Positions 17,045 through 49,992 of a stretch of 64,000 nt of DNA are shown piece by piece. Origin of the DNA: Escherichia coli (GTDB taxonomy: Bacteria > Pseudomonadota > Gammaproteobacteria > Enterobacterales > Enterobacteriaceae); assembly GCF_050920415.1 (NCBI RefSeq), contig NZ_CP169309.1. One strand, given 5' to 3'. The notes below the pieces were generated by a model, which saw only the letters and a list, made by a program, of their open reading frames with translations, made no database searches and was not told the origin of the DNA. The position numbers and the translations under genes were made by a program. Position 1 is the first letter of the stretch. Each line of letters starts with the position of its first letter.

Positions 17045-17120
17045 GCCTGATGCGCTTCGCTTATCAGGCCTACAACCGGGCTAATGTGGGCCGGTTGTAG
17101 GCGTTTACGCCGCATCCGGC
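17045..17120. repeat. BIME: two inverted REP elements between yddE and nhoA
   Basis: GCCTGATGCGCTTCGCTTATCAGGCCTACAACCGG ... CCGGTTGTAGGCGTTTACGCCGCATCCGGC read directly. Confidence 0.65.
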
Positions 17121-47130: not shown

Positions 47131-47218
47131 GTGACTCCTCCGGCAAAGCGGAAGTTTATCACTTGTGCGTTATAACGGACAAATGCTACGGTACCTGTAC
47201 GCTATAACGCACGAGGTG

Positions 47219-48394
47219 ACCATGCGTCTGTTTTCTATTCCTCCACCCACGCTACTGGCGGGGTTTCTGGCGGTATTAATTAGCTACGCCAGTTCAGCGG
47301 CAATAATCTGGCAAGCAGCGATGGTCGCCGGAGCCACCACTGCACAAATCTCTGGCTGGATGACGGCGCTGGGGCTGGCAATGGGCGTCAGTACGCTGGC
47401 TCTGACATTATGGTATCGCGTGCCTGTTCTCACCGCATGGTCAACGCCTGGCGCGGCTTTGTTGGTCACCGGATTACAGGGACTAACACTTAACGAAGCC
47501 ATCGGCGTTTTTATTGTCACCAACGCGTTAATAATCCTCTGCGGCATAACGGGACTCTTTGCTCGTCTGATGCGTATTATTCCGCACTCGCTGGCAGCGG
47601 CGATGCTGGCCGGAATTTTGTTACGCTTTGGTTTACAGGCGTTTGCAAGTCTGGATGGTCAGTTTACGTTATGCGGTAGTATGTTGCTGGCGTGGCTGGC
47701 GACGAAAGCTATTGCGCCACGGTATGCGGTTATTGCGGCGATGATAGTTGGCATCGTAATCGTTATTTTACAAGGTGACGTTGTCACAGGGGATATTGCC
47801 TTTAAACCCGTTCTCCCCGCTTATATTGCCCCTGAATTTTCGTTTGCTCACAGTCTGAGCGTTGCACTCCCCCTTTTTCTGGTGACGATGGCATCGCAAA
47901 ACGCACCGGGTATTGCGGCAATGAAAGCGGCCGGGTATTCGGCTCCTGTTTCGCCGTTGATTGTATTTACTGGATTGCTGGCGCTGGTATTTTCCCCTTT
48001 CGGGGTTTATTCCGTCGGTATTGCAGCAATCACCGCGGCTATTTGCCAAAGCCCGGAAGCGCATCCGGATAAAGATCAACGTTGGCTGGCAGCTGCCGTC
48101 GCAGGCGTTGTTTATTTGTTTGCAGGTCTGTTTGGTAGCGCCATAACTGGAATGATGGCCGCGCTGCCCGTGAGTTGGATCCAGATGCTGGCAGGTCTGG
48201 CGCTGTTGAGTACCATTGGCGGCAGTTTGTATCAGGCGCTGCATAATGAGCGTGAGCGCGACGCGGCGGTGGTCGCATTTCTGGTAACGGCAAGTGGACT
48301 AACGCTTGTCGGGATTGGTTCTGCGTTTTGGGGATTAATTGCCGGTGGCGTTTGTTACATGGTGTTAAATTTAATCGCTGACAGAAACCGATAA
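47219..48394 (+). CDS. ydcO: BenE-family membrane transporter
   Basis: Track ORF 47165..48394; conserved start MRLFSIPPPTLLAGFLAVLI. Confidence 0.8.
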   Translation, partial: TMRLFSIPPPTLLAGFLAVLISYASSAAIIWQAAMVAGATTAQISGWMTALGLAMGVSTLALTLWYRVPVLTAWSTPGAALLVTGLQGLTLNEAIGVFIVTNALIILCGITGLFARLMRIIPHSLAAAMLAGILLRFGLQAFASLDGQFTLCGSMLLAWLATKAIAPRYAVIAAMIVGIVIVILQGDVVTGDIAFKPVLPAYIAPEFSFAHSLSVALPLFLVTMASQNAPGIAAMKAAGYSAPVSPLIVFTGLLALVFSPFGVYSVGIAAITAAICQSPEAHPDKDQRWLAAAVAGVVYLFAGLFGSAITGMMAALPVSWIQMLAGLALLSTIGGSLYQALHNERERDAAVVAFLVTASGLTLVGIGSAFWGLIAGGVCYMVLNLIADRNR

Positions 48395-48428
48395 TAAAAA
48401 GCGCCATCTTACGATGGCGCGACTGGAA

Positions 48429-49097
48429 TTACTTTTTGTTAACGTCAAACATGGTGGCATCGGTCGCCATGTCATCAATAACTTGCTTAATATTCTCGAA
48501 AGCCATTGGCGTACTTTCATTATTCAGGTCTTTACCTTCGCCCTGACGAACGACTTTGATAACCGGTTTATTAGTAGCTGCATCAATTAGCTCACCTTCA
48601 AAATACAGGCGAGTATCCATGGTACGGTGGCCCGTCGCCATTTGCGTCCCCGCGACCACTAATGCGACAGGAACCACTTCATAGAATTGCAGCCCTTCTT
48701 TGCTGGTATCTACACCGGTAATGGCCCCACGGAAAATCAGACTACGCGGCCCAGCGGTGGTAACCAGTGGTTTACGCTGCGCAATCGCTTCTTTCATTTC
48801 GGTGTTGGTATAACTCAAAATTTTATCCAGAACTTTCTGCCCTACCTGGGTAGATGGTTTCGGTACCGGATAATAAGTGACTGGGTTCCAGACGATGCTG
48901 TCATATTTGCTTTGATCAAAACTCGGGTCTACCCAACGTAAAACAGGCTTACCCGTTGCAGAAGTTGTTTCTTTTAAATCAGAGTAATTGTTTAAAAAGC
49001 CAGAATATTTATCTGGCTGGGTGATTTTAGAGGCACAACCAGACAGAGCCAACAAGCCGCATAAAGCTGCAACTTTCGCAAATGATGTGGTACGCAT
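48429..49097 (-). CDS. ydcL: Lipoprotein
   Basis: 222-aa ORF with lipobox ...LLALSGCASK. Confidence 0.8.
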   Translation of the reverse strand: MRTTSFAKVAALCGLLALSGCASKITQPDKYSGFLNNYSDLKETTSATGKPVLRWVDPSFDQSKYDSIVWNPVTYYPVPKPSTQVGQKVLDKILSYTNTEMKEAIAQRKPLVTTAGPRSLIFRGAITGVDTSKEGLQFYEVVPVALVVAGTQMATGHRTMDTRLYFEGELIDAATNKPVIKVVRQGEGKDLNNESTPMAFENIKQVIDDMATDATMFDVNKK

Positions 49098-49398
49098 GAA
49101 TAGTTTCCTGAGATGATTATATTACTTTTTAAGTTATAGCAAAAAGCACCGCTTCGTGTTGTGGCAAAAAAAGTGTTGGTAAAAATAAATTTATCAGCCC
49201 CTTTTCAGACGACATAGTCAATGCCGAAAAAGGGGCTAAGTCAATCATCAGTAGTTAAATATCAGTGCGTTAAGCTGATGAAAAACTTCGACTACCGTGA
49301 TTAATTTCACATCCTTTTGATTAAAAATATGCTTACCGAAAAGAACAACGGTTAACCATCTCAACGCGGGGCATTTTCACGCGCCTTGTTCTACCGGG

Positions 49399-49992
49399 TC
49401 ATTTTTTACGTGCCAGTATCGTGGCGAAACGCAGTTTAATCCGATTACCGTTGGCATCGGTGCGGTGCAACTCACCGACGTTTTCATTGTATTTCACCAT
49501 CTCCCAGCCTTCGTAATATCGACGTAATTCTCCCTCTTTGAAGGCAAACGGGAAGCCGACGGTACATGGATAATCAGCGGTATCCATCGCCGCCACAATC
49601 AGGTTGTAACCACCAGGTTTAGTGCAACGTTGCATATTGGCAATCAGCCCTGGGATGGTTTTAGCCTCAAGGAACATCAGCACCACAGTCGAAAGAATAA
49701 AATCGTATTGCCCATCAAAGGTGAGGTTATTCAGATCAACGACCCGGGTATGTAAATTATCCAGATTTTCAATGGATTTAATGCGCTCGACGTTGGCGAT
49801 ACTCATGGCATTTTTATCCCATGCGTCAACTTCATAACCATTGGCTGCCAGGTAAAGACTGTTACGACCATTGCCACAGCCCAGATCCAGCGTTTTACCG
49901 GGTTTAACCACTTTCACCGCTTCCAGTACTTCAGAGTGTGTGCGGGTTAATTCATATTTTTCAGTAAAATAGTTTTCGTCACGGATGATCAT
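49399..49992 (-). CDS. tehB: Tellurite methyltransferase (SAM-dependent)
   Basis: 197-aa ORF with SAM motif [15 protein letters not shown]. Confidence 0.9.

Follow-up and report, generated by a model that had tools for sequence, protein, structure and literature searches.

A U-poor RNA hairpin between tehB and ydcL of Escherichia coli, a probable 3' boundary of tehAB-side transcripts

Canonical intrinsic terminators consist of a stable, G+C-rich stem with a short loop (3-8 nt), located downstream of a co-oriented gene and followed directly by a U-tract of about 7-9 nt. Dar and Sorek (2018) described a different situation, in which precise steady-state 3' ends lie immediately downstream of stable stem-loops that lack a U-rich tail. 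Such stem-loops shield Rho-terminated transcripts against PNPase and RNase II, and rut sites are found just downstream of them (Dar and Sorek, 2018).

Here we describe a hairpin in the spacer between tehB and ydcL, within a 64-kb stretch of E. coli DNA (the window), that can be compared to both systems. Like the stem-loops of Dar and Sorek (2018), it is a stable hairpin without a U-rich run, it sits at the end of a transcription unit with a mild excess of C over G just downstream, and in K-12 it has a mapped RNA 3' end 1 or 5 nt past the stem. Unlike them, it is followed after 4-5 nt by an interrupted U-run, so that some intrinsic termination is possible, and its stem, 19 bp with a bulge, is of unusual length and has A-U-rich inner pairs. 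With canonical intrinsic terminators it shares a G+C-closed hairpin, a short apical loop, the sense strand and a location past the last gene of an operon, and terminators of that type are found at the same place in Enterobacter, Trabulsiella, Yokenella and Pseudenterobacter. It differs from them in that no U-tract abuts the stem, in that the mapped 3' ends precede the U-run, and in that it lies, in E. coli, 160 nt past the stop codon instead of a few tens of nt. The hairpin best fits the class of U-poor, 3'-terminal protective stem-loops, or else a weak terminator.

We propose that this hairpin, encoded on the strand of tehA, tehB and ydcL, probably marks the 3' end of tehAB-side transcripts, just upstream of the ydcL promoter. 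It would separate the tehAB unit from the promoter immediately downstream. A strong, interrupted 19-bp stem devoid of a proper U-tract suggests mainly a 3'-terminal protective hairpin: RNA polymerase would stop at the hairpin or shortly beyond it, by weak intrinsic termination in the A/U-rich tail and/or by Rho-dependent termination downstream, and 3'-to-5' exonucleases would trim the transcript as far as the stem base, so that a defined and stabilised 3' end remains. Rho dependence and exonuclease trimming are proposed here by analogy with the stem-loops of Dar and Sorek (2018), and the split of polymerase release between the intrinsic and the Rho-dependent route is inferred. The transcripts ending here are likeliest to be tehAB mRNAs; as the hairpin lies about 160-205 nt past the tehB stop in E. 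coli, the ending RNA could also start inside the spacer. An unannotated and highly conserved spacer structure would in this way be assigned to a known class, that of U-poor 3'-end hairpins, with little import beyond annotation.

The inverted repeat and its RNA fold

The gene tehB (49399-49992, minus strand) is the last of the tehAB unit and was identified as an ORF, by the RefSeq annotation of an identical locus and by its match to Pfam TehB (E = 5.6e-109). Downstream on the same strand lies ydcL (48429-49097; ORF, annotation and Pfam DUF3313, E = 5.7e-63), coding for a DUF3313 lipoprotein. The gene tehA is also on the minus strand, and ydcO (47165-48394; ORF and annotation) is on the plus strand. 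The spacer between tehB and ydcL is 301 nt long.

This spacer contains a perfect 10-bp inverted repeat (49196-49237, minus strand), with a left arm at 49196-49205 (AGCCCCTTTT) and a right arm at 49228-49237 (AAAAGGGGCT) that are 100% complementary and, according to the repeat finder, separated by 22 nt. A preliminary description, made from the sequence alone, had placed at 49190-49245, downstream of tehB and upstream of ydcL, a 10-11 bp stem around a loop of about 20 nt; the dimensions it gave are accurate, and the placement is correct as judged by ORFs and annotation. The 64-kb window has a single instance of the exact repeat pattern, and none of 100 dinucleotide shuffles has it. As a class, perfect inverted repeats of at least 10 bp with loops of 3-30 nt are enriched in the window (nine, vs 1.76 ± 1.2 in shuffles), and any single one of them could have arisen by chance. 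Since repeats of this class also appear in shuffled sequences, a single one is no proof by itself and more support was needed.

The two strands differ in their fold. As minus-strand RNA, the repeat folds with -26.3 kcal/mol (z = -5.63) and none of 200 shuffles folded equally well, while the fold of the plus strand is weaker (-19.1 kcal/mol, z = -3.6). The full hairpin comprises 46 nt (49194-49239) on the minus strand, which is the sense strand of tehB and ydcL; 160 nt separate its start from the tehB stop codon, and 96 nt its end from the ydcL ATG. It is made of an outer stem of 13 bp (49239-49227 paired with 49206-49194), a 3-nt bulge (49209-49207), an inner stem of 6 bp (49226-49221 paired with 49215-49210) and an apical loop of 5 nt, UGACU (49220-49216). 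The stable stem, the short loop and the location downstream of a co-oriented gene are those of an intrinsic terminator. A search of both strands against Rfam 15 at a permissive threshold returned chance matches to snoRNAs only, the best being a Tetrahymena snoRNA model with 17.9 bits against a threshold of 70 (E = 0.2). We conclude that the inverted repeat is real and that it most likely forms an RNA hairpin.

The tail of the hairpin and the RNA 3' ends mapped in K-12

The hairpin is followed by a tail of mixed A and U (UAAAUUUAUUUUUACC, 49178-49193, minus strand). The tail reads UAAAUUUAUUUUU in the window and AAAAUUUAUUUUC in K-12, with T at 3-4 of its first 8 positions; the U-tract of about 7-9 nt that directly follows the stem of intrinsic terminators is absent. 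The U-tail score of the Escherichia hairpin is 0.49-1.69, vs 1.5-4.6 for the canonical terminators found at the same site in other genera. An approximate d'Aubenton-Carafa-type score, for which modern energies were used, ranges from -35 to -57 for the hairpin vs -16 to +36 for its canonical neighbours. A consensus terminator scan did not flag the hairpin either, and the preliminary description was right in stating that this is not a canonical terminator. Within the spacer, C exceeds G only in the 40 nt that follow the hairpin, and mildly so (C-G = +5). A literature search on tehB and bicyclomycin retrieved no data on Rho dependence.

An RNA 3' end has been mapped at this site in K-12. In the tables of Bar et al. 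(2023) (TRS; PMC10687069) it is found on the plus strand of NC_000913.3, which is there the sense strand of tehB and ydcL, as a peak at 1502359-1502368 with 1502361 as dominant position, and with adjusted p values of 1.5e-14, 1.0e-18 and 4.5e-28 in three LB RNAtag-seq libraries. In a second, re-analysed dataset the peak covers 1502359-1502367 and its dominant position is 1502365 (PMC10687069). Transferred by alignment, K-12 position 1502361 corresponds to 49193 in the window, 1 nt past the last stem pair, and 1502365 to 49189, 5 nt past it. The structure printed for this 3' end (UGACUUAGCCCCUUUUUCGGCAUUGACUAUGUCGUCUGAAAAGGGGCUGAAA, -25.4 kcal/mol, 'max U-tract' 4; PMC10687069) is the same hairpin that we folded. 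A stable, U-poor stem-loop and a precise 3' end, the combination reported by Dar and Sorek (2018), are hence both found at this locus. The K-12 orthologue is already in a published high-throughput 3'-end table, though unannotated in genome records; the tables of Adams et al. (2021), TERMITe and SMRT-Cappable-seq, in their text form, make no mention of tehB or ydcL.

In the tables of Bar et al. (2023) the 3' end is labelled as 'premature in 5' UTR of ydcL' (PMC10687069). According to their labelling rule, an end at most 100 nt upstream of a start codon is ascribed to a 5' UTR, and only ends at most 100 nt from a stop codon are called 'primary' (PMC10687069). The mapped end lies about 206 nt from the tehB stop. 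The label is a product of the rule only, and the end is mislabelled. Our result corrects this rule-based label in a public table, and it defines a likely 3' boundary of tehAB transcripts, which would carry in E. coli a long 3' UTR of about 205 nt.

The tail and the mapped ends also bear on whether the hairpin suffices to end transcription. It could be a self-sufficient, weak intrinsic terminator, in which the hairpin and the interrupted U-run UAAAUUUAUUUUU release the polymerase and the mapped 3' ends are slightly trimmed products. The strength of the hairpin in the coding sense and its 5-nt apical loop favour such a terminator, as do the 6 T among the first 10 nt of the tail in the window, the canonical terminators that other genera have at this position and the very mapping of a K-12 3' end there. 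However, the U-rich run begins only 4-5 nt past the stem, which is directly followed by AAAA(A) in K-12 and most E. coli; the ends at +1 and +5 precede the run instead of lying 7-9 nt into it; and the corresponding tails in Citrobacter and Salmonella are almost without T, with 1-2 in their first 8 nt. We regard self-sufficient termination as possible but less likely, and favour the protective hairpin at the end of tehAB-side transcripts. In any event, the hairpin could be one more test case for how hairpins without a U-tract end transcripts.

Conservation within Escherichia and across genera

The spacer is single-copy and was found in 5411 of 5426 complete E. coli genomes (median of one place per genome), yet its conservation is not homogeneous: in 5035 of 5406 E. 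coli genomes the identity is 95-99% over the 72 nt surrounding the hairpin, vs only 80-90% to 5307 of 5407 genomes over the 146 nt proximal to tehB. Sliding identity against K-12 showed a dip (85%) limited to about 49294-49393, which rules out a large recombinant tract. In an alignment of seven strains, the sequence from the hairpin through the ydcL ATG is nearly invariant. Together, the identity gradient and this alignment delimit the constrained part of the spacer to the hairpin and the 100 nt proximal to ydcL. A segment of about 125-135 nt in the tehB-proximal half (about 49263-49390) is specific to Escherichia, the spacers of Citrobacter and Salmonella being shorter (about 165 nt), and in the window it is present as an unusual allele, at least 99% identical to only 4 of 5407 E. 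coli genomes. A 39-aa ORF that runs through the hairpin (49129-49248, minus strand) was discarded: its frame is broken by 1-nt indels in O157:H7, UCPROB-001 and E. albertii, and it has no ribosome-binding site.

Other Escherichia lineages illustrate what can vary around and inside the hairpin. As an example, Escherichia sp. MOD1-EC7003 has a spacer of 177 nt that lacks the extra ~125 nt, and its hairpin lies about 35 nt past the tehB stop, a typical distance between a stop codon and a terminator. Among eight Escherichia sequences (E. coli, cryptic clades and E. albertii), 90.7% of the hairpin cells pair. Covariation within Escherichia alone was not significant (0.152 vs 0.129, with 90 to 289 of 500 shuffles as good), the divergence among the eight sequences being too small. 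The inner 6-bp helix is not retained outside E. coli proper, and other lineages pair differently inside. In E. coli CT01 an IS1A and an adjacent deletion (L003, 3001-3856) have removed the hairpin, the CRP-like site described below and the TTGCCACAACA block, so that only 22 nt remain next to the tehB stop and 61 nt, with TGCTATAAC among them, in front of ydcL; the loss of the hairpin in this strain shows that it is dispensable. The chicken E. coli strains GPEC1356 and GPEC996 bear tandem duplications of 36 and 21 nt, respectively, in the 5' arm and loop of the hairpin (columns 168-203 of spacer alignment A2), which could reflect slippage at the structure or be assembly artefacts.

We then compared the locus across genera, using an alignment of YdcL from which 80 loci were fetched from species-representative genomes. 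A hairpin is present between the tehB stop and the ydcL promoter block in all 25 further genomes in which tehB precedes ydcL. It takes the form of a canonical terminator, T-tract included, in several more distant genera (Enterobacter sp. ENT03, Trabulsiella, Pseudenterobacter, Yokenella and Pseudocitrobacter). The hairpin of Citrobacter and Salmonella (L014-L033) reads GCGTTCAGCA...TGCTGAGCGC, and variants thereof, followed by AGATAAAATTGTG, with 10-12 bp, a U-rich loop and an A-rich tail, and it lies about 100-135 nt upstream of ydcL (alignment A5) and about 35-40 nt past the tehB stop; as in Escherichia, it does not qualify as a canonical terminator. A conserved AAATTGTGC motif is seen after the hairpin in these two genera. 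The Escherichia hairpin is followed by the tail GA(T/A)AAATTTATTTT. In MAFFT alignments, the hairpins of Escherichia and of Citrobacter/Salmonella fall on one position, directly 5' of the block GATAAA(A)TT...ydcL promoter that they share, and both have a U-poor, A-rich tail. They differ in that the Citrobacter/Salmonella stem (GCGTTCAGCA/TGCTGAGCGC) is another one, is shorter and is much closer to tehB. The Citrobacter/Salmonella hairpin is backed by compensatory changes.

Among 17 Citrobacter/Salmonella sequences, 7 of 12 pairs have changed on both sides, and the covariation score is 0.322 vs 0.201 ± 0.021 in shuffles, a value that none of 500 shuffles reached. Pairing amounts to 86.8%, and sliding the partner by 1-3 columns lowers it to 21-45%. 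A strand test based on wobble pairs gave a small asymmetry in favour of the sense strand, both in Escherichia (90.7% vs 82.1%) and in Citrobacter/Salmonella (86.8% vs 84.3%). On this comparative evidence, the feature kept at the site is a single-stranded hairpin and not a sequence. As to the cross-strain alignment of the spacer that the preliminary description had called for, the hairpin is highly conserved in E. coli, and the sequences of its arms are unlike those of sister genera.

The same data weigh on the proposal, contained in that description, of a regulatory binding site. If a dimeric regulator of ydcL or tehAB recognised the repeat as a DNA palindrome, this would agree with the perfect 10-bp arms, with their centre some 120 nt ahead of the ydcL ATG and with an almost invariant sequence in E. 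coli. However, the half-sites would be 22 bp apart, and the arms are unrelated in sister genera that do keep ydcL and its promoter block; half-sites are not conserved there, with double changes in 7 of 12 pairs in Citrobacter and Salmonella. Moreover, compensatory and G-U changes, which preserve the pairing, are not what a DNA-binding protein would select for, and an RNA 3' end maps at the base of the hairpin in K-12. We consider a regulator palindrome very unlikely.

In Enterobacter-type genomes the neighbour of ydcL is not tehB, and these loci help to decide to which gene the hairpin pertains. The gene upstream of ydcL in E. asburiae codes for a solute-binding protein (SBP_bac_5), and the canonical terminator of this gene (ACTGCCCGG...CCGGGCAGT followed by CTTTTTGC) occupies the same spot and adjoins the same promoter block. 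The comparison of Enterobacter and tehB loci reveals a recurring architecture, in which the terminator of the upstream unit, whichever it is, precedes the ydcL promoter. From this architecture, the hairpin would belong to the end of the upstream unit and not to ydcL. The locus would hence show how the sequences of terminator hairpins can be replaced and their place beside a conserved downstream promoter retained.

The ydcL promoter block, the CRP-like site and IS609

The putative promoter block of ydcL (49133-49172, minus strand) combines TTTTTTTGCCACAACA (49172-49157) with an extended -10-like element, TGCTATAAC (49141-49133). It lies about 35-75 nt upstream of the ATG and is conserved from Escherichia to Enterobacter whatever the upstream gene (e.g. 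at 2921-2962 in L034), with the consensus TTTTT(G/A)(C/T)CACAACA ... TTTGCTATAAC and a variant, TTTGCTAT(T/C), in Citrobacter and Salmonella. Genomic SELEX with the RpoS holoenzyme gave a peak in the tehB>ydcL spacer of K-12 (PMC5493296), and the conserved block is consistent with it. The block, downstream of the hairpin, resembles an extended -10 promoter and may well serve as that of ydcL.

The tehB-proximal half of the spacer contains a CRP-like site, TGTGA-N6-TCACA, at 49296-49311, about 65 nt upstream of the hairpin. The site is perfect in K-12 (TGTGAAATTAATCACA) and has TCACG in the window; across E. coli clades and E. albertii its half-sites are invariant and its N6 is variable. A consensus promoter scan of the spacer gave one match, on the opposite strand, and no sigma-70-like promoter on the sense strand upstream of the hairpin. 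This match, TTCACA-16-TATGCT (49306-49333, plus strand), overlaps the CRP-like site and points antisense into the 3' end of tehB. Literature searches found no record of a CRP site in the tehB-ydcL spacer, and nothing useful on tehB in connection with CRP, a promoter or a transcription start.

Promoter positions bear on the possibility that the hairpin is an attenuator in the 5' UTR of ydcL, where a promoter upstream of the hairpin would drive ydcL and the hairpin would stop most transcripts early. The filing of the 3' end under the ydcL 5' UTR in the TRS table points in this direction, and the conserved CRP-like site of the Escherichia-specific segment could belong to such a promoter. Against this, the conserved promoter-like block that the genera have in common is found downstream of the hairpin, and the scan revealed no sigma-70-like promoter upstream of it on the sense strand. 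In Citrobacter, Salmonella and Escherichia sp. MOD1, with the hairpin about 35-40 nt past the tehB stop, there is no room for an intergenic promoter, and in Enterobacter the same position is held by the terminator of another gene. An attenuator is therefore unlikely, and the hairpin is better seen as the end of tehAB-side transcripts.

An RNA of its own could also be encoded in the spacer, either in sense orientation from a CRP-linked promoter or antisense, as the predicted Shigella 'Ssr15', with the hairpin as its terminator end. The CRP-like site, with its invariant half-sites in Escherichia species, would suit a sense RNA, and the mapped RNA end is a 3' end only. Ssr15 of S. flexneri 2a 301 (1,817,490-1,817,786) spans the ydcL(SF1779)/tehB spacer and, in window terms, equals the whole spacer (49098-49398) on the plus strand. 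However, it is a computational prediction from 2016, runs antisense to both genes and carries no mark of RT-PCR validation (PMC4782007). In addition, the hairpin persists without the CRP segment in Escherichia sp. MOD1, Citrobacter and Salmonella, the sense strand showed no promoter-like site in the scan and Rfam gave no match beyond chance, and the poor U-tail is unlike the terminators of Hfq-type sRNAs. We judge an independent spacer sRNA to be distinctly unlikely. Much the same holds for a conditional gate, or the 3' end of a small transcript specific to Escherichia, in which a CRP-linked promoter would yield a short RNA or read-through into ydcL: it is improbable, and if it were true, carbon status and the stopping efficiency of the U-poor hairpin would govern how much ydcL (or regulatory RNA) is made.

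As the preliminary description stated, K-12 carries IS609 between ydcL and ydcO (insQ and a tnpA/yncK pseudogene), and the window does not; its empty site, between ...GCGCTTTTTAT and TATCGG... (48394/48393), is intact here. In K-12 the 1748-bp element follows immediately on ...GCGCTTTTTAT, where the canonical terminator of ydcL itself ends, and without target duplication, as expected for the IS200/IS605 family. That terminator (48401-48420, with a T-run at 48396-48400) has a U-tail score of 4.5, and a K-12 3' end is mapped there too (1503159-1503160).

The proximity of this element, about 0.7 kb from the hairpin in K-12, and the use of subterminal hairpins by its family could suggest that the repeat is a relic, whether of an IS200/IS605-type end related to IS609 or of a REP/BIME-like sequence; a chance repeat is conceivable too, given that about 1.8 such inverted repeats are expected per 64 kb. 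However, the hairpin is found once per genome in about 5,400 E. coli genomes and once in the window, which has the hairpin without having IS609, and matches to IS609 are of only 7-8 nt, a chance level. Conservation, fold energy and the mapped 3' end argue in turn against chance. Both origins are highly improbable, and the 'degenerate repeat' that the preliminary description had envisaged turned out to be a single-copy element unrelated to IS609.

Eight other perfect inverted repeats of at least 10 bp were found in the window. Seven of them are located at 17068, 18693, 22282, 35321, 44405, 52175 and 63144. The remaining one, a perfect 10-bp repeat at 47165-47212 (GTGCGTTATA ... TATAACGCAC, with a 28-nt spacer), lies at the sutR-ydcO boundary, at the start of ydcO, and is a candidate operator, for example for SutR.
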